Source: an uncultured Alphaproteobacteria bacterium (GTDB lineage Bacteria > Pseudomonadota > Alphaproteobacteria > HIMB59 > GCA-002718135). Taken from it: a stretch of DNA of 64,000 bases. Both the position numbers and the translations under genes were made by a program. The notes below the pieces were generated by a model, which saw only the letters and a program-made list of their open reading frames with translations, did no database searches and was not told the DNA's origin. Of this stretch, positions 4,304-64,000 are shown piece after piece. Where the stretch lies: positions 2,170 to 66,169 of the forward strand of contig CACKRO010000002.1 in assembly GCA_902602695.1 (NCBI GenBank), written 5' to 3'. Within the stretch, counting starts at the first letter, position 1. Each line of letters begins with the position of its first letter.

Positions 4304-5203
4304 TTTTTTAATAAAATCTTTTAAAATTGGATCTCTTTTGATTTCATAGACTATTTTAATTGGGTGCCTATTTTTATCTGAAGCCCATTTCATATCATTT
4401 AAAAGAATTGGAGATGGAATTGTTTTAGTTGGTGCCCATTCCTCGTTTAAGACATAACCAACAGCTGCCATATCCCAAATTTCTTTTGACCAACCTTTAT
4501 GGATACTATTGTACTCTTTAAATCGCATTGCGAGAAATTTACCTATTTCACCATTAGGTTCGATGTATTTTTCTATTTCTGGAACTGTTGAAATAAGATG
4601 TGAAGTTACTCCCTTACAAGGAACCATAACTAGTGAGACGCCACTATCAAACAAAACTTGAGCACCTCCAATATCTTGCTTTAGATTAAATTCTGAATTT
4701 TGCGGCCAATAAAGTGCGTTTCCTCCCAACCAAACTACAACAATTTTTTTTATAATTTCTGGCTCTTTCAATAATGCAGAGGCAACGTTTGAAATAGCAC
4801 CGATAGCTAATATGTATAGAGGATCTTCTTCAGAACATTTTAAAGCACTTTCTATGATATTATCTGCAGCAGGCGAATCAATAGGTTTTTTTTCAAAACC
4901 TACGTATTTTGTTGAGCCTTTAAAAACAAAATTTTTTTTAAAATTTATTTTTTCTAACAATCGTAAGATTTCATCATAACTAAGCTCCATTCCCTTCTTT
5001 GGATTATCTGAACGATTATTCATTGAAAAAGGAGCGGCATTTATACTTTGCACTTCTATTTTTTCTTTTGAAAACAACATTTGCACTAAAGCAAATTGAT
5101 CATCAATTTCATTGTAGGTGTCTGTATCAAGAATGGCTTTAATTTTTCCTTTTTTAAACTCAAGTTGTTTTAAAATATCTGAAAAATCTCTTTCTAAAAG
5201 CAT
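4274..5203 (-). CDS. inosine/uridine-preferring nucleoside hydrolase family protein
   Basis: An N-terminal Asp cluster ILDTDTYNEIDDQFAL resembles the IUNH DxDxxxDD signature, with two extra residues. The length is about 310 aa. Confidence 0.6.
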   Translation of the reverse strand: MLLERDFSDILKQLEFKKGKIKAILDTDTYNEIDDQFALVQMLFSKEKIEVQSINAAPFSMNNRSDNPKKGMELSYDEILRLLEKINFKKNFVFKGSTKYVGFEKKPIDSPAADNIIESALKCSEEDPLYILAIGAISNVASALLKEPEIIKKIVVVWLGGNALYWPQNSEFNLKQDIGGAQVLFDSGVSLVMVPCKGVTSHLISTVPEIEKYIEPNGEIGKFLAMRFKEYNSIHKGWSKEIWDMAAVGYVLNEEWAPTKTIPSPILLNDMKWASDKNRHPIKIVYEIKRDPILKDFIKKLENFSSSSH

Positions 5204-59816: not shown

Positions 59817-61007
59817 ATGTCTGAATATAAAGTATTAAAAAGATCTTTTTATATTGCTTACTCAGTAGGCTCATTAAACATTTTTCTATTAACTATTTAT
59901 ATGGTTCATGTCCCAATTTTACTAGATATACTAAAAATTACAAAAGTAGAATTCTCATTTGGATTAACATTATTTGGTTTATTTAGTATAATATCTAATC
60001 AAGCAACTACACTTTTTTTGACCCCAAAGATTGGAACAAAAAATTGTATTGTCATTTCAAGAACAATTATATCTTTTTTACCTTTCATAGTTTTTTTTTC
60101 AGAAAGTTATTCTGTTTTTTTAATTGTATCATCTATTTGGGGTTTAGCTATGGGTATACAGGTACCAAATGTATTGTTACAAGTTAGTATTATTGAAAAA
60201 GAAACTTCAGAAATTTTAAACCCTATATTTAAATCAGCTTTTTCCATAGGTGTAATATGTGGTTCAATAACTGCCAGTATTGCACTTGGGTATAATTTTA
60301 ATCCCATTAATATATTTATTTTTTTTGGTTTTATTTTTATTCTTTCAGCATTAACTATTTATTTTTTTGGATTACCAAGAAAATATGACATTGTGAGCAA
60401 AGGTTCAAAATTTACTCTTCCAAGTAAAGGTGTTTTTATATTTGGACTCATAAATATGCTTATTTTTGCTTCCATGGGAATAATTGCACAATGGTCATCA
60501 TTGTGGCTGCTTAATGATCTTAACGCAGCTATTTTTATGGCTGGCTCAATAGTACTTTTTTTTAACATTGGAGGAATAATTAGCAATTTTTTAGCATCAA
60601 ATCTTATCAATTTGTTTAATGAAAAAGTTGTAGGCCCTTACTTTTCCATAATAGGATCAATAATTCTGATAGTCAGTATTACAACAATGAACTTATATAT
60701 AATTCTATTAGCTATGATAATTTTTGGATTTTTTACATCAAATCTATTACCTATAGTAATTAGATTAGCTGTTAAAATCTCTAAAGAGCCTATGCCCAAG
60801 ACTATCTCTCATATAACTAGCATAGGTCAAGCAGGAGCTTTATTTGGTCCAGCAATTGTTGGTTTTGCTGCATCAATCTTTGGATTAACTTTTAATATGT
60901 ATGCACTAGGTTTTATTTTTTTAGGTATTTCGTTTTTATTATTAACAGCTATAAAAAATAATACAGTGGTAGGAGTAGAGGGAATCGAACCCACACCACC
61001 GAAGTGA
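59817..61007 (+). CDS. MFS-like 12-TM transporter, paralog 2 (3' end reads into the tRNA-Leu gene)
   Basis: It is collinear with paralog 1, for example PILFELIEMTKTEFS versus PILLDILKITKVEFS. Its last 41 nt overlap the complement of tRNA-Leu. Confidence 0.55.
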   Translation: MSEYKVLKRSFYIAYSVGSLNIFLLTIYMVHVPILLDILKITKVEFSFGLTLFGLFSIISNQATTLFLTPKIGTKNCIVISRTIISFLPFIVFFSESYSVFLIVSSIWGLAMGIQVPNVLLQVSIIEKETSEILNPIFKSAFSIGVICGSITASIALGYNFNPINIFIFFGFIFILSALTIYFFGLPRKYDIVSKGSKFTLPSKGVFIFGLINMLIFASMGIIAQWSSLWLLNDLNAAIFMAGSIVLFFNIGGIISNFLASNLINLFNEKVVGPYFSIIGSIILIVSITTMNLYIILLAMIIFGFFTSNLLPIVIRLAVKISKEPMPKTISHITSIGQAGALFGPAIVGFAASIFGLTFNMYALGFIFLGISFLLLTAIKNNTVVGVEGIEPTPPK

Positions 61008-61051
61008 CCGGATTTTGAATCCGGCGCGTCTACCAGTTCCGCCATACTCCC
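60967..61051 (-). tRNA. tRNA-Leu (anticodon CAA), class II with long variable arm
   Basis: An 85-nt hand fold. It has a GGGAGTA/TACTCCT acceptor stem and a CCGGA/TCCGG anticodon stem with loop TTCAAAA. The variable arm is CAC-UUCG-GUG, the T-loop is GGTTCGATTCC, and CCA is encoded. Confidence 0.9.
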
Positions 61052-61130
61052 ATATTATTTTTCCCTGTAATACTTGGTTTTCAAAGTTAAGTCTACCAAC
61101 ATGATAAGGAAATATTATTCGTAAAGTGTC
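61000..61130. repeat. direct repeat copy 1: tRNA-Leu 5' half plus ~80 nt of its upstream region
   Basis: It aligns with 63397-63539. The match is exact over the tRNA part and, by eye, about three-quarters identical over the upstream part, for example tttttccctgtaatacttggtttt versus tttttccaagtattacttggtttt. Confidence 0.8.
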
Positions 61131-61209
61131 TTAAAATATTTAATTCTTTATAAATTCACAAATCTACTTAAATTTTATAAAATAATTTTAAATTTAATAA
61201 TTTTATTTT

Positions 61210-62601
61210 ATGAACAAATTATTCACTGGAGACAATTTATATATACTTCATGGACTTAATTCAGAAAGTGTAGATTTAATTTATTTAGATCCACCTTTTA
61301 ATTCAAAAAGAAAATTTGACGCCCCTGTTGGGAGTATAGCTGCGGGTGCATCTTTTGAAGATATGTGGAATTGGAGTGATGTAGATTCATTATATTTGGA
61401 AGAAATAATAAACAACTATCCATTTTTAGTTCAATTTATCCAAACTATTGGAAGAATTAATGGAGACTCTATGAAGTCTTACATTACTTATATGACACAA
61501 AGAATAATAGAAATGAAAAGAATATTAAAGAATACAGGATCATTTTATTTGCATTGTGATTCTACTGCTTCTCACTACTTAAAAATAGTTTGTGATAGAA
61601 TCTTTAAAAAAAATAATTTTAGAAATGAAATTATTTGGAAGAGACTAAATGTTTCTGGCAAAGAGTCTCAATATAAAAAAAAGAAATACAGTTCTAACAC
61701 TGATATTATTTTATTTTATACTAAATCAGATGATTATTTTATCAATCCGTATAGAAAACTAAATGAAGATGAAATGAAAATTAAATTTCCATACGGTAAA
61801 TTTCCAAATAGATATAAATTAGGAACAAGACTTTTTAGGTCAACGACAGCTGGGCCAAGACCAAATTTATGTTATGAATGGAGAGGTTTTAAAAACAGGT
61901 CTGAAGCAGGTTGGGCACTAAGTAAGGAGAGACTTGAAGAGGAATATCAAAAAGGAAATATTGTAATTAAAAATGAAAAAAGTTTGGAAAGAAGATCATA
62001 TGAAAAAGACTATAAAGGTGAGCCAATCTCTAACATATGGGATGATTTAAATGAATGGACAAAAAATGAAAGAACTAAATTTCCCACACAAAAGCCTTTA
62101 AGCTTAATGAAAAGAATACTTTTAACAAGTTCTAAAGAGAATGATGTCGTATTAGATCCATTTTGTGGATGTGCCACAACATGTATTGCCGCTCAACAAT
62201 TAAATAGAAAATGGATAGGGATTGATATTAGTGAGGCCTCATCTAAAATTATGATTGATAGATTAAGTGATGATTCTGCATTATTTAAAGATTTTATTAA
62301 TATTAAATCTCCTCCTAAGCGCTCTGATATTAAAGAGGTCCCAGTTTCAAACAGCTTAAGACAAGAAATTTATAATAATCAAAAAGGTCAATGTAATGCT
62401 TGTGATTTACAAACAGATTTAAGGCATTTTGAACTAGATCATATCATACCACGTTCTAAGGGAGGTGGTGATTATTTTGAAAACTATCAGTTATTATGCT
62501 CAAGTTGTAATAGAATAAAAGGTGATAGACCAATGGCTTATCTTCTCCTAAAAATCCAGAAAATAAATAAACTCCATAAATACGAATTAAGTTTTAGTTG
62601 A
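61210..62601 (+). CDS. beta-class N6-adenine/N4-cytosine DNA methyltransferase fused to a C-terminal HNH nuclease domain
   Basis: Motif IV is DLIYLDPPFNS. It is followed by FPTQKPLSLMKRIL and motif I VLDPFCGCATTCIAAQ, which is the beta-class order. The C-terminal HNH is CNAC...FELDHIIPRSKGGGDYFENYQLLCSSCNRIKGD. Confidence 0.8.
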   Translation: MNKLFTGDNLYILHGLNSESVDLIYLDPPFNSKRKFDAPVGSIAAGASFEDMWNWSDVDSLYLEEIINNYPFLVQFIQTIGRINGDSMKSYITYMTQRIIEMKRILKNTGSFYLHCDSTASHYLKIVCDRIFKKNNFRNEIIWKRLNVSGKESQYKKKKYSSNTDIILFYTKSDDYFINPYRKLNEDEMKIKFPYGKFPNRYKLGTRLFRSTTAGPRPNLCYEWRGFKNRSEAGWALSKERLEEEYQKGNIVIKNEKSLERRSYEKDYKGEPISNIWDDLNEWTKNERTKFPTQKPLSLMKRILLTSSKENDVVLDPFCGCATTCIAAQQLNRKWIGIDISEASSKIMIDRLSDDSALFKDFINIKSPPKRSDIKEVPVSNSLRQEIYNNQKGQCNACDLQTDLRHFELDHIIPRSKGGGDYFENYQLLCSSCNRIKGDRPMAYLLLKIQKINKLHKYELSFS

Positions 62602-62715
62602 TTGCGATAAAATTTCTAATTTTTTTTTCGTATGTAGGTCATATTTCTTACTATCTAAAAGTGCAAAGCGTCGTATGAGCGTCGCAATTTTTTTTTAATT
62701 TGAGTAAAAAATTTT

Positions 62716-62799
62716 ATGATCATCATAATTATCCTGCTTCCAAACACGGAGATTATTAAGACTCTAATGAAAAATTATCGTATATGCAGACTGGGTTAG
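62716..62799 (+). CDS. candidate 27-codon Ile/Leu-rich micro-ORF inside repeat module 1
   Basis: It encodes MIIIIILLPNTEIIKTLMKNYRICRLG. All 5 substitutions relative to copy 2 within the shared 20 codons fall at third codon positions. No SD is present, and it conflicts with the promoter reading of the same bases. Confidence 0.25.
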   Translation: MIIIIILLPNTEIIKTLMKNYRICRLG

Positions 62800-62830
62800 T
62801 GGTAAGGCCTATCACTAACCCTTTGCTTTT
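62793..62830 (+). terminator. terminator-like hairpin plus T-tract (module copy 1)
   Basis: A perfect 9-bp stem GGGTTAGTG/CACTAACCC with an 11-nt loop, followed by TTTGCTTTT. Confidence 0.45.
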
Positions 62831-62897
62831 ACCTTTCCTTTAATTTTAAAATATCATTTTAAATTAACAAATTAGATTTTTTTACCTATAAGGGCAC

Positions 62898-63293
62898 ATG
62901 CGTTTGTTAAGCAAATTTTTGATTCTTTTTTTTTCAATACACGTGGCATTTACTGTGGTTGCTTATTTTTATGGCTTTTCATTTACCTTCCCTTTTATCA
63001 TGACAGAAGGCACTTATGTGCCTGAACATCGTTTACAAAGTTTACGTTTATCAACTTTTACCACTTTTGTTTATTTTGGTTTTCGATATTTATTCTTTGG
63101 TTCAGAAAAGTTGCATCCAATACAATTCTTAGGTGTTTCTTTATTTAACTTAGGTGTTCTAGGTGGTCTATGCCTTTATGTTAATGATATTAAAGACTCT
63201 TCAGAATATTTTTTAGTACCTTTTTTTATATTTTCATCAATAATTTTATATAACGCTGCCAATCCGAAAATTAGAAATTATTTTAAAACATAA
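62898..63293 (+). CDS. hypothetical 131-aa polytopic membrane protein (about 4 TM)
   Basis: An ORF with four hydrophobic segments. I recognise no family. Confidence 0.45.
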   Translation: MRLLSKFLILFFSIHVAFTVVAYFYGFSFTFPFIMTEGTYVPEHRLQSLRLSTFTTFVYFGFRYLFFGSEKLHPIQFLGVSLFNLGVLGGLCLYVNDIKDSSEYFLVPFFIFSSIILYNAANPKIRNYFKT

Positions 63294-63396
63294 CATTAGA
63301 TTATTTATACAGTTAAAATATTTTAATCAAAAAACGTATGAGCGTTAAATATTAAAAGATAACTATAATCTTATTGAATTAGTTTAGTTTTTTAAA

Positions 63397-63448
63397 CGAA
63401 GTGACCGGATTTTGAATCCGGCGCGTCTACCAGTTCCGCCATACTTCC
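63397..63448 (-). pseudogene. truncated tRNA-Leu(CAA) 5' fragment (positions 1-52, ending in the variable-arm UUCG loop)
   Basis: It matches 51 of 52 nt of 61000-61051. It lacks the 3' half of the variable arm, the T arm and the 3' acceptor strand. Confidence 0.8.
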
Positions 63449-63519
63449 TTTATATTTTTCCAAGTATTACTTGGTTTTTAAGTTTAAGTCTATGAAGTTG
63501 TTTGGAGGAATTGAATTCG

Positions 63520-63689
63520 AAAAGTTTCGTAAGAGTGTCGCTATTTTTTTGGTTAATTTGAGTAAAAAATTTTATGATAATCATAATTATCCTGCTGCCA
63601 AACACTGAGATTATTAAGACTCTGATAAAAAATTAGCGTATAGGCCGACTGGGTTAGTGGTAAGGCCTATCACTAGCCCTTTTTATTTT
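63520..63689 (+). repeat. repeat module copy 2
   Basis: A homolog of 62657-62830. Its micro-ORF is 63574-63636 (MIIIIILLPNTEIIKTLIKN, 20 codons). Confidence 0.8.
63651..63689 (+). terminator. terminator-like hairpin plus T-tract (module copy 2)
   Basis: The stem is GGGTTAGTG/CACTAGCCC. The single change gives a U-G wobble on the plus-strand RNA only. It is followed by TTTTTATTTT. Confidence 0.45.
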
Positions 63690-63835
63690 AATCAAAAAAA
63701 TCTTCTTTAAAATAAGTAGCACTTACTCAAATTAAAGATCATTTTATTGATAAAATCATTATAATAAAATTATGAAATTAATTTATTTTAAAGTTATTAC
63801 TTATAATATTTATAGACTGTTAATTAAAAATTATT

Positions 63836-64000
63836 ATGAATTCTTTTAATTCTAAAGAATATTTAAATTTTGTAAATATCTCATTAAAAAAAATGGATGA
63901 TGGTTTTTATGAGGAATCATTAATTGATTTAAAGAAAGTAATATCTTCTAATTTTTTTAAAAAATTAAAAACCAATGATCAACTTTTTATTAGAAAAAGA
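63836..64000 (+). CDS. 5' part of an unidentified ORF running off the window
   Basis: The frame is open for 55 codons from ATG 63836 to the window end (MNSFNSKEYLNFVNISLKKMDDGFYEESLIDLKK...). The function cannot be called. Confidence 0.3.
   Translation, partial: MNSFNSKEYLNFVNISLKKMDDGFYEESLIDLKKVISSNFFKKLKTNDQLFIRKR

Follow-up and report, generated by a model that had tools for sequence, protein, structure and literature searches.

The last 3 kb of the DNA stretch analyzed here (64,000 nucleotides of contig CACKRO010000002.1 from an uncultured alphaproteobacterium, hereafter called the window; AT-rich, 31% G+C) contain two direct copies of a module of about 170 nt, each of which ends in a hairpin followed by a T tract. 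An earlier note, made from the sequence alone, had pointed out this twice-repeated module and offered two readings of it: (a) a short plus-strand RNA ending at the terminator hairpin or (b) an Ile-rich micro-open reading frame (micro-ORF) serving as a leader-peptide attenuator or, possibly, a type I toxin-like peptide. The repeat was confirmed at about 91-92% identity. Positions 62688-62824 and 63546-63682 matched without gaps at 92% identity, the alignment could be extended back to about 62665/63522 once one 2-nt indel was allowed, and a 25-nt core of the module occurred exactly twice in 64 kb, while none was expected from shuffled sequences. With just two copies in 64 kb, a REP (repetitive extragenic palindromic) or DNA-uptake-like repeat was ruled out. 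A search of Rfam 15 with the module and the hairpins (gathering threshold and E ≤ 10) returned tRNA as the sole family, and the other best matches had E > 2.

Two cassettes at a tRNA-Leu gene

The features that delimit the two units carrying the module are as follows (window positions):

60967-61051, minus strand: intact tRNA-Leu(CAA) gene (ARAGORN and Rfam), which anchors the cassette array; synteny with relatives ends just beyond it
61000-61095, minus strand: Repeat A, the tRNA-Leu 5' half plus 44 nt of upstream/promoter region; a direct repeat, on the intact side of the attachment-type (att-type) pair
61118-61132, plus strand: one isolated unit of the direct repeat, TTCGTAAAGTGTC, bordering the methyltransferase insertion on the left; homology to the module block stops here
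61210-62601, plus strand: DNA methyltransferase-HNH fusion gene (Pfam N6_N4_Mtase and HNH), between the direct-repeat units of cassette 1
62668-62689, plus strand: tandem 11-bp direct repeats GCGTCGTATGA GCGTCGCAATT of copy 1, putative arm-type recombinase-binding sites
62898-63293, plus strand: gene Y, a 131-aa membrane protein, last gene of cassette 1
63335-63345, plus strand: repeat motif CGTATGAGCGT beyond the tRNA fragment, a putative opposite-arm site; the same site follows Y in L107-L120 (nhmmer)
63397-63492, minus strand: Repeat B, a displaced tRNA-Leu 5' half with its upstream region, at the cassette 1/cassette 2 boundary
63524-63545, plus strand: tandem 11-bp direct repeats GTTTCGTAAGA GTGTCGCTATT of copy 2
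63836-64000, plus strand: first gene of cassette 2, a rare cargo gene with only two fragmentary homologs, which runs off the window

Repeat B, which had escaped the earlier note, was 90% identical to 61000-61095 and gave a weak tRNA match in Rfam; copy 2 of the module begins 28 nt after it. The insert is therefore bounded by a direct repeat of part of a tRNA gene (61000-61095 versus 63397-63492), that is, by an att-like structure. We took 80 loci around the neighboring core gene from species-representative genomes (related loci are denoted by L numbers). The closest came from single-cell genomes of uncultured marine Alphaproteobacteria and Pelagibacterales, and one Y homolog carries the name Pelagibacteraceae. 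Synteny with all relatives stopped just past tRNA-Leu and its upstream region, and L031, L034, and L035 carried a second tRNA-Leu 5' fragment, which indicates that the gene is an integration hotspot. The segment forming Repeat A was found repeated in these three loci, as well as in L107 and L108.

Further copies of the module were sought as the earlier note had proposed. A metagenome scan with the hairpin core yielded six loci, and looking up contigs that encode some of the Y homologs yielded 22 more. Since these 22 loci were found through the Y protein and not through the module, they form a sample that is unbiased as to module sequence. About 25 further full or partial copies were thus recovered from single-cell genomes and metagenomes, and they provided 11 distinct full-module haplotypes and a series of partial or distant versions. 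Other scans were negative: species-representative genomes contained no match to ACTGGG-N6-GGTAAGGCCTATC-N6-CCC, a pattern that was too strict in hindsight, IMG/VR gave 20 matches to the apex 15-mer of the hairpin, all due to chance, and nothing with the middle block of the module or with the Shine-Dalgarno box described below, while blastn against a phage collection retrieved only tRNA or chance matches.

Every full copy of the module turned out to be the last part of a contiguous block of about 290 nt, composed, in this order, of the tRNA-Leu 5' half with its upstream region, a spacer of about 30 nt, two 11-bp repeats (GCGTCGTAAAA GCGTCGCAATT and variants), and the module. The contiguous block was seen in window copy 2, L102, and L107-L120. 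It adjoined the intact tRNA in L102, L107, L108, L110, L113, and L114, and followed a tRNA fragment, with the same junction TTTAAA/CGAAGTGACC, in window copy 2, L111, and L120. Copy 1 departs from this arrangement only by the insertion of the methyltransferase-HNH gene in the direct repeats. As this gene lies between split repeat units and is absent there in all related loci (the equivalent position was found without it in L102, L107, L108, and L109), it has the look of a selfish gene inserted secondarily into an att arm.

The order of genes after the block was also shared. In loci of the L107 type, the block is followed by a gene for a helix-turn-helix (HTH) protein of the HTH_25 family and a gene for a 181-aa winged-helix protein (both at 5169-5960 in L107), Y, about 100 nt, and a further tRNA-Leu fragment. 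L108 and L109 are without the two regulator genes, and cassette 1 of the window corresponds to this short form, while L120 shows the order 181-aa gene, Y, fragment, module. Three tRNA-Leu pieces are present in each of L107 and L108, and in the related tRNA-Leu loci a tRNA-Leu 5' fragment always occurs about 100 nt after Y. The membrane protein encoded after copy 1, previously taken for an orphan, has 157 homologs at 62-96% identity. Its gene regularly sits just before a displaced tRNA 5' fragment, which derives from tRNA-Leu in one lineage and, in another, from tRNA-Arg, where two more small genes intervene.

The cassettes move between genomes: when the window was compared with L107, identity in the core gene VTT was 70%, falling to 54% at third codon positions, whereas Y was 95% and the module 90% identical. 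Either the cassettes are mobilized in trans or they have decayed. It was correctly observed before that the module stands ahead of two different genes; however, tandem integration of cassettes explains this placement, and recruitment as a leader does not.

Direct repeats and integrases

Analogous tandem repeats of 11 bp were found directly before P4-like integrases with an arm-DNA-binding domain, beside tRNA-Arg 5' fragments. In L126 (1225-1475), a tRNA-Arg(CCT) 5' fragment and the repeats GGTGGTACTCA TGTGGTACTCA precede a complete P4-like integrase (1473-2621), and in L103 (oriented, 130-330) a tRNA-Arg(ACG) 5' fragment is followed by TGGTGGTACCA, present twice, and by a truncated P4-like integrase, which breaks off near residue 153 and is fused there to the 3'-terminal 100 nt of the module. 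In the first 150 nt past the tRNA-Leu upstream region, the islands of L021-L040 differ in the sequence of their 11-bp tandem repeats but not in the distance of these repeats from the tRNA, for example GGACAACAAAA GGCCAACAAG in L035, GGGAATCTAAT AGGAATCTAAA in L030, and GGCGTCGCAAG GGCGTCTTAAA in L039, which would be expected if every island family has its own recombinase specificity. By analogy with the repeats beside P4-like integrases and with those at the same position in other islands, we read the window repeats as probable arm-type recombinase sites. Among the loci examined, no cognate integrase for the GCGTCG-type repeats was found. Integrase genes were present among the related loci only (complete in L126, truncated in L103, and also in L104 and L106), and a search of IMG/VR with the L106 integrase returned nothing. 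A supposed homology of the 5' half of the module to the L103 integrase coding sequence was rejected, as the identity of about 45% (judged by eye) was not above the AT-rich background.

Conserved blocks of the module

The 5' part of the module contains the following features:

62700-62729, plus strand: promoter-like TTGAGT-18-CATAAT of copy 1, in the conserved promoter/palindrome block
62714-62728, no strand: perfect 7-1-7 palindrome TTATGAT-C-ATCATAA, operator-like, which coincides with the "Ile run" of the micro-ORF
63558-63587, plus strand: promoter-like TTGAGT-18-CATAAT of copy 2, containing the palindrome TTATGAT-A-ATCATAA at 63572-63586

In the 11 haplotypes, 56% of the columns were variable in the direct repeats, 10% in the 40-nt promoter/palindrome block, 39% in the 44 nt between the presumed transcription start and the stop of the micro-ORF, and 7% in the 43-nt hairpin block. 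Judging from these proportions, constraint is confined to two parts, the promoter/palindrome block and the hairpin block. The 7-1-7 palindrome was intact in 10 of the 11 haplotypes, with one mismatch in L109, and its free central base is one of the differences between the window copies that had been counted as synonymous. A second candidate promoter, TTGGTT-18-TATGAT, is present in the module, a minus-strand candidate, TTGGCA-16-TATCAT (63601 to 63574), overlaps the promoter-like site of copy 2 and occurs in that copy only, and a further promoter-like site lies at 62828-62857, downstream of the copy 1 hairpin and ahead of the cargo.

The middle block (62727-62760 and 63585-63618) represents a decayed form of a ~45-nt box, AATTATCCTACCACCAACYAAGGAGATTGTTAAG; its Shine-Dalgarno part reads GGAG or TGAG in the window, with only 43 nt left to the hairpin. 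Elsewhere this box contains a strong Shine-Dalgarno sequence; it reappears in flexible regions and is followed in several places by small hydrophobic ORFs; the sites are L101 (oriented, ~545-610), L103 (oriented, ~1810-1875), L106 (~2540-2605), L121 (4140-4175), and L127 (2490-2530). A 21-codon "hydrophobic ORF" in L121 was discarded as probably spurious, since part of it is the conserved noncoding unit of L125-L127.

A hairpin conserved in structure

The 3' part of each copy is formed by the hairpin, termed HP2:

62793-62830, plus strand: HP2 and T tract of copy 1 (12 bp, loop AGGCC, apex GUGGUAAGGCCUAUCAC), intrinsic-terminator-like
63651-63689, plus strand: the same hairpin and T tract in copy 2, intrinsic-terminator-like

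The hairpin and its T tract had been described before with a stem of 9 bp; the stem (62793-62821 and 63651-63679) in fact comprises 12 bp, including one G-U pair, closed by a 5-nt loop. The observation that the A/G difference between the copies preserves pairing on the plus strand only, as U-G, proved correct. HP2 was part of the minimum-free-energy folds of both copies, in each of which a stable G+C-rich hairpin directly precedes a U tract on the strand that would be transcribed. In RNAalifold, the module gave the terminator only, with neither an alternative nor any other supported structure.

Among 10 distinct versions of the hairpin, 98% of the cells were paired, and four pairs were altered on both sides. 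This covariation was reached by none of 500 shuffles and collapsed in slid registers. With G-U or U-G pairing seen at four different columns, the fold can be assigned to the plus strand, as RNA or single-stranded DNA, so that the larger sample supports a real plus-strand structure. The upper six pairs with the loop (GUGGUAAGGCCUAUCAC, 17 nt) were invariant across the versions save for one U-A to U-G change, while the lower stem covaried. HP2 is thus a candidate new RNA motif, not represented in Rfam. A covariance model of the hairpin, R1, recovered only the known copies in the window (two in 64 kb) and in 48 related loci, and no further copy in 20 related tRNA-Leu neighborhoods.

HP2 was also found without the rest of the module. 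It occurs with about 45 nt of upstream identity in L104 and L106, 130 nt after tyrosine integrase genes and following a conserved 32-aa ORF, by itself in L105, and with about 100 nt of upstream identity in L101 and L103, in the latter joined to the truncated integrase. In distant relatives it has a different lower stem and lies after a tRNA-Arg(CCT) 5' fragment (L121/L122) or between two small genes downstream of Y homologs, with no recombinase nearby (L125-L127). Among these unrelated contexts, similarity always ended at the 3' foot of the hairpin, and its 5' extent was nested at about 45, 100, or 170 nt.

Several structures adjoin these copies. In one lineage, HP2 forms the second half of a two-hairpin motif (L125 4880-4976, L126 850-916, L127 875-943, and L121 4215-4301), in which the first hairpin has the loop UUCUAAG, the second has the invariant apex of the window hairpin, and compensatory changes occur in both stems. 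The motif is absent from Rfam; it sits between 59-aa and 57/58-aa genes downstream of Y homologs, and in L121/L122 it has moved to just after the tRNA-Arg(CCT) 5' fragment. The 32-codon hydrophobic ORF (MLGFIFWLALLPIKLWIAYHVIIFIYSVWLGF, with a second version that differs mainly by conservative replacements; L104, oriented, 195-295, and L106 880-980) starts a few bases past the stop of the tyrosine integrase and ends about 20 nt before the hairpin. In L107, another G+C-rich hairpin, TTCACTGTG ... CACAGTGAA with the loop CUCCGUCCUCCUU, lies between the module and the HTH_25 gene (5105-5160); this segment is deleted in cassette 1 of the window.

The micro-ORF

Both micro-ORFs exist as claimed:

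62716-62799, plus strand: micro-ORF of copy 1, 27 codons, not regarded as a conserved coding sequence
63574-63636, plus strand: micro-ORF of copy 2, 20 codons, judged likewise

The predicted peptide is MIIIIILLPNTEIIKTL(M/I)KN, and the five differences between the window copies in codons 1-20 do all fall at third positions, which had been taken as the signature of translation. Nevertheless, this pattern did not persist in the larger sample, where the 11 haplotypes gave 4, 5, and 10 variable columns at codon positions 1, 2, and 3, respectively. The reading frame was broken by a 2-nt deletion in L108 (MIIIIILLLNTYY*) and by a 1-nt insertion in the partial copies of L101 and L103, which have neither the ATG nor the Ile run, and the replacements among haplotypes were radical (N>K, T>K, K>E, and L>Q). 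Frame-breaking indels and substitutions spread over codon positions are the very findings that the earlier note had named as refuting the micro-ORF. Codons 1-6 fall in the conserved promoter/palindrome block, and codons 7-20 in the block where the module is least conserved (39% variable). MIIIIIL is retained in 11 of 11 full haplotypes, but the Ile run appears incidental, since ATG ATN ATC ATA A is simply the palindrome TTATGAT-N-ATCATAA of the promoter-like block. Both candidate promoters, which are predictions, would place the ATG within the spacer or the -10 hexamer, i.e. upstream of the transcription start, and inspection of the sequence upstream of the ATG revealed no Shine-Dalgarno motif.

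An attenuator would, in addition, need an alternative fold and a suitable operon. In most copies, the segment AUAGGCC, just past the stop of the micro-ORF, is complementary to GGCCUAU in the loop and 3' arm of the hairpin, as would suit an antiterminator; window copy 1 has AUAUGCA instead, which abolishes the complementarity with no compensatory change. An H-type pseudoknot between AUAGGCC and the loop was ruled out by the loop lengths, as its third loop would have 0 nt. The genes that follow the modules (HTH_25, winged-helix protein, membrane protein Y, or the unknown ORF) are not ilv or leu genes and are unrelated to branched-chain amino acids. Leader-peptide attenuators, such as those of trp, ilvGMEDA, leu, and his, resemble the module in that Ile/Leu codons form a run ahead of a terminator hairpin and that an alternative pairing is possible, but the module differs from them in its unconserved frame, in the start codon lying in a promoter-like block, in the missing biosynthetic operon, and in the pairing lost from copy 1. 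As for the toxin, the unconserved ORF has only eight hydrophobic residues, too few for a membrane toxin, and the window offers no conserved small hydrophobic ORF with an overlapping antisense RNA; small hydrophobic ORFs are present in the related units L104, L106, and L103. Minus-strand ORFs (62655-62747 and 63450-63605), whose third codon positions coincide with those of the plus-strand ORF and which have AGGA 5 nt before an ATG, were rejected as well, since the copies lose the shared frame after 11 codons. On the larger sample of 11 haplotypes plus partial copies, the Ile-leader attenuator is thus not supported; to judge from the alignments, it is an artefact that arose because just two copies of an AT-rich palindrome had been compared. 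A translated Ile/Leu-rich leader peptide controlling the terminator, or a small toxic peptide, is very improbable.

Interpretation of the module

Taken together, these results led us to hypothesize that two small mobile cassettes are stacked at the tRNA-Leu(CAA) hotspot of a SAR11-type (Pelagibacteraceae) genome and that the module is probably the noncoding piece at their tRNA-proximal end. Each cassette, on arrival, would bring its own tRNA-Leu 5' half and tRNA promoter, thereby rebuilding the gene. Next in the cassette would come the two 11-bp direct repeats, as arm-type sites for a tyrosine integrase acting in trans, and then the module. Each integration would drive the previous tRNA fragment and module outwards, and for this reason the module would be found twice, before unrelated genes. 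The module itself may consist of three parts: (i) a conserved block that resembles a promoter, overlaps the operator-like palindrome (to which HTH proteins of the cassette itself might bind), and would start a transcript of about 90 nt; (ii) a poorly conserved spacer of about 45 nt with a decayed Shine-Dalgarno box; and (iii) a conserved RNA hairpin with a U tract, which would end the transcript before the cargo genes, these being served by their own promoter-like site (62828-62857). The short plus-strand RNA ending at a terminator hairpin, as proposed under reading (a), fits these data, given that the hairpin covaries and its wobbles belong to the plus strand. Promoter activity, transcription, termination, and protein binding are in every case predictions from sequence, and any role of the hairpin apex beyond termination, either in insulation or in recognition by some factor, would be a further one.

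Several observations weigh against this interpretation. The promoter hexamers are present in the sequence, but they are no better than chance in so AT-rich a stretch (20 pairs versus 18.7 in shuffles). Palindromes of the 7-1-7 type occur about once per 3.8 kb of the window, so that the palindrome as the explanation of conservation is suggestive rather than proven, and an excess of third positions (10 of 19 variable columns, not significant) is left. No integrase was found in the window (61052-64000) or in the L107 and L108 arrays, i.e. no recombinase is encoded by these elements, so that mobility in trans can only be inferred. In L125-L127, the same hairpin is located within what appears to be an operon and has no clear U tract, and in L104 and L106 it follows integrase genes, which means that termination is perhaps not its sole or main role. 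Finally, the overall divergence of the module is about that of the synonymous sites of Y (window versus L107), and much of the module could hence be a drifting relic.

Among the alternatives, a trans-acting or cis-antisense regulatory small RNA is conceivable, though unlikely. Here the transcript of about 90 nt would itself be the functional product, acting through the GUAUAGGCC stretch and the hairpin apex to control, for example, cassette immunity or excision, or a host target. The promoter-like site and the terminator would suit such an RNA, as would the single-stranded (C/A)RUAUAGGCC just 5' of the hairpin in the conserved 3' block, which is kept in L101 and L103-L106, the apex that stays invariant over very divergent contexts while the lower stem covaries, and the related two-hairpin unit in L121 and L125-L127. 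On the other hand, conservation within the module is lowest in the 5' two-thirds of the putative RNA, where 39% of the columns vary and indels occur, covariation is absent outside the terminator, and neither a target nor an Rfam relative was identified.

Unlikely, too, is the possibility that the hairpin is a new structured RNA (or plus-strand single-stranded DNA) motif of SAR11-type flexible regions that is recognized by a dedicated factor and marks or controls mobile cassettes. Such a motif would consist of the invariant apex GUGGUAAGGCCUAUCAC on a covarying stem, to which one lineage adds a preceding covarying hairpin with the loop UUCUAAG; it might set the ends of cassette transcripts, control immunity or excision, or signal the cassette boundary. 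If this were true, the tRNA-Leu array would be a cassette system organized by an RNA element.

We consider it improbable that the module is merely a drifting relic with incidental termination, left over from a cassette-end gene unit that once comprised a promoter, a ribosome-binding site, a small ORF or integrase operon, and a terminator. Such an origin would be consistent with the middle block, which matches the box found ahead of small ORFs in L101, L103, L106, and L121 and is degraded in the window 43 nt from the hairpin, with the truncated integrase fused to the 3' 100 nt of the module in L103, with the order integrase, 32-aa ORF, hairpin in L104 and L106, and with the divergence close to that of synonymous sites in Y. 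However, the promoter/palindrome and hairpin blocks are clearly more conserved than their surroundings, and compensatory changes maintain the hairpin.

More doubtful still is a DNA or single-stranded DNA recombination site, i.e. a second att or core site for cassette exchange, in place of an RNA element. The hairpin is an imperfect palindrome, similarity always ends at its 3' foot with a nested 5' extent, and it lies 130 nt past integrases (L104, L106) or beside a truncated one (L103). Yet wobble pairs at four positions, together with the compensatory changes, fit a plus strand that folds and not a duplex binding site, the copies of L125-L127 have no recombinase nearby, and no target-site duplication was seen. 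In integron attC sites, the conserved inverse core and core (RYYYAAC / GTTRRRY) form the stem base around a variable center; HP2 shows the reverse, an invariant apex on a variable base, and its base sequences do not fit the consensus.

Comparison with known systems

Stacking of elements anchored at a tRNA gene and element-borne tRNA 5' ends are known already. In tycheposon islands of Prochlorococcus, as described in passages of Hackl et al. (10.1101/2020.12.28.424599), elements integrate at the tRNA at the island's proximal end, repeated integrations stack them, and partial tRNAs and degenerate elements accumulate. The window's tRNA-Leu resembles the islands portrayed in those passages in its stacked elements and partial tRNAs, but the host is SAR11-type, and the cassettes are only 1-2.5 kb long and have no recombinase or replication genes; the passages searched in that paper do not mention a terminator or a conserved end-module. 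Pelagiphages of the HTVC019P type integrate with a core that overlaps the middle or 5' end of SAR11 tRNA-Leu, tRNA-Cys, and tRNA-Arg genes, the disrupted tRNA being complemented by a phage-borne partial 5' end (Zhao et al., 10.1101/410191). The 5'-half duplications in the window have the same geometry; however, the tRNA-Leu targets of the phages are tRNA-Leu(TAG) and tRNA-Leu(TAA) (10.1101/410191), whereas the target here is tRNA-Leu(CAA), and the locus holds no phage genes. The module and hairpin were not found in phage records or IMG/VR. The claim that no described element is like this one therefore holds for the hairpin, which is not in Rfam, but not for its genomic setting, which is of a known kind.

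For lambda/P4-like tyrosine integrases (domain PF13356), arm-type sites are short direct repeats flanking the core on both sides. The 11-bp tandem repeats directly before arm-DNA-binding integrases in L103 and L126 agree with this, although the putative arm sites of the window have no cognate integrase among the loci examined. Like intrinsic (Rho-independent) terminators, HP2 has a G+C-rich stem kept by compensatory changes and followed by a U tract; unlike ordinary ones, it has a 17-nt apex that is invariant in sequence across unrelated contexts, and some copies are without the U tract.

What is new are the integrase-less mini-cassettes with a common noncoding end-piece and, as a candidate RNA motif, the hairpin with an invariant apex. 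To our knowledge, the gain and loss of flexible genes in SAR11, the most abundant marine bacterium, are still poorly understood. The locus reveals very small integrase-less cassettes, bounded by tRNA 5' halves and common to genomes with highly diverged cores, together with a conserved noncoding end-piece containing a hairpin on whose structure selection acts. Should this end-piece be functional, metagenomes could be searched for similar cassettes with the 17-nt apex and the model R1 as a handle, and the end-piece would constitute a regulatory part open to testing.

Minor features of the locus

A small perfect plus-strand hairpin, CCAAGTATTACTTGG, followed by a T run (63460-63474), lies inside the conserved tRNA-Leu upstream region and could stop transcription entering from Y. 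On the other side of the array, the ORF of the second of two tandem paralogs of the major facilitator superfamily (MFS; 59817-61007) runs about 40 nt into the opposite-strand tRNA-Leu gene (60967-61051), while some relatives have one or no MFS gene between the VTT gene and the tRNA (L107, L035).

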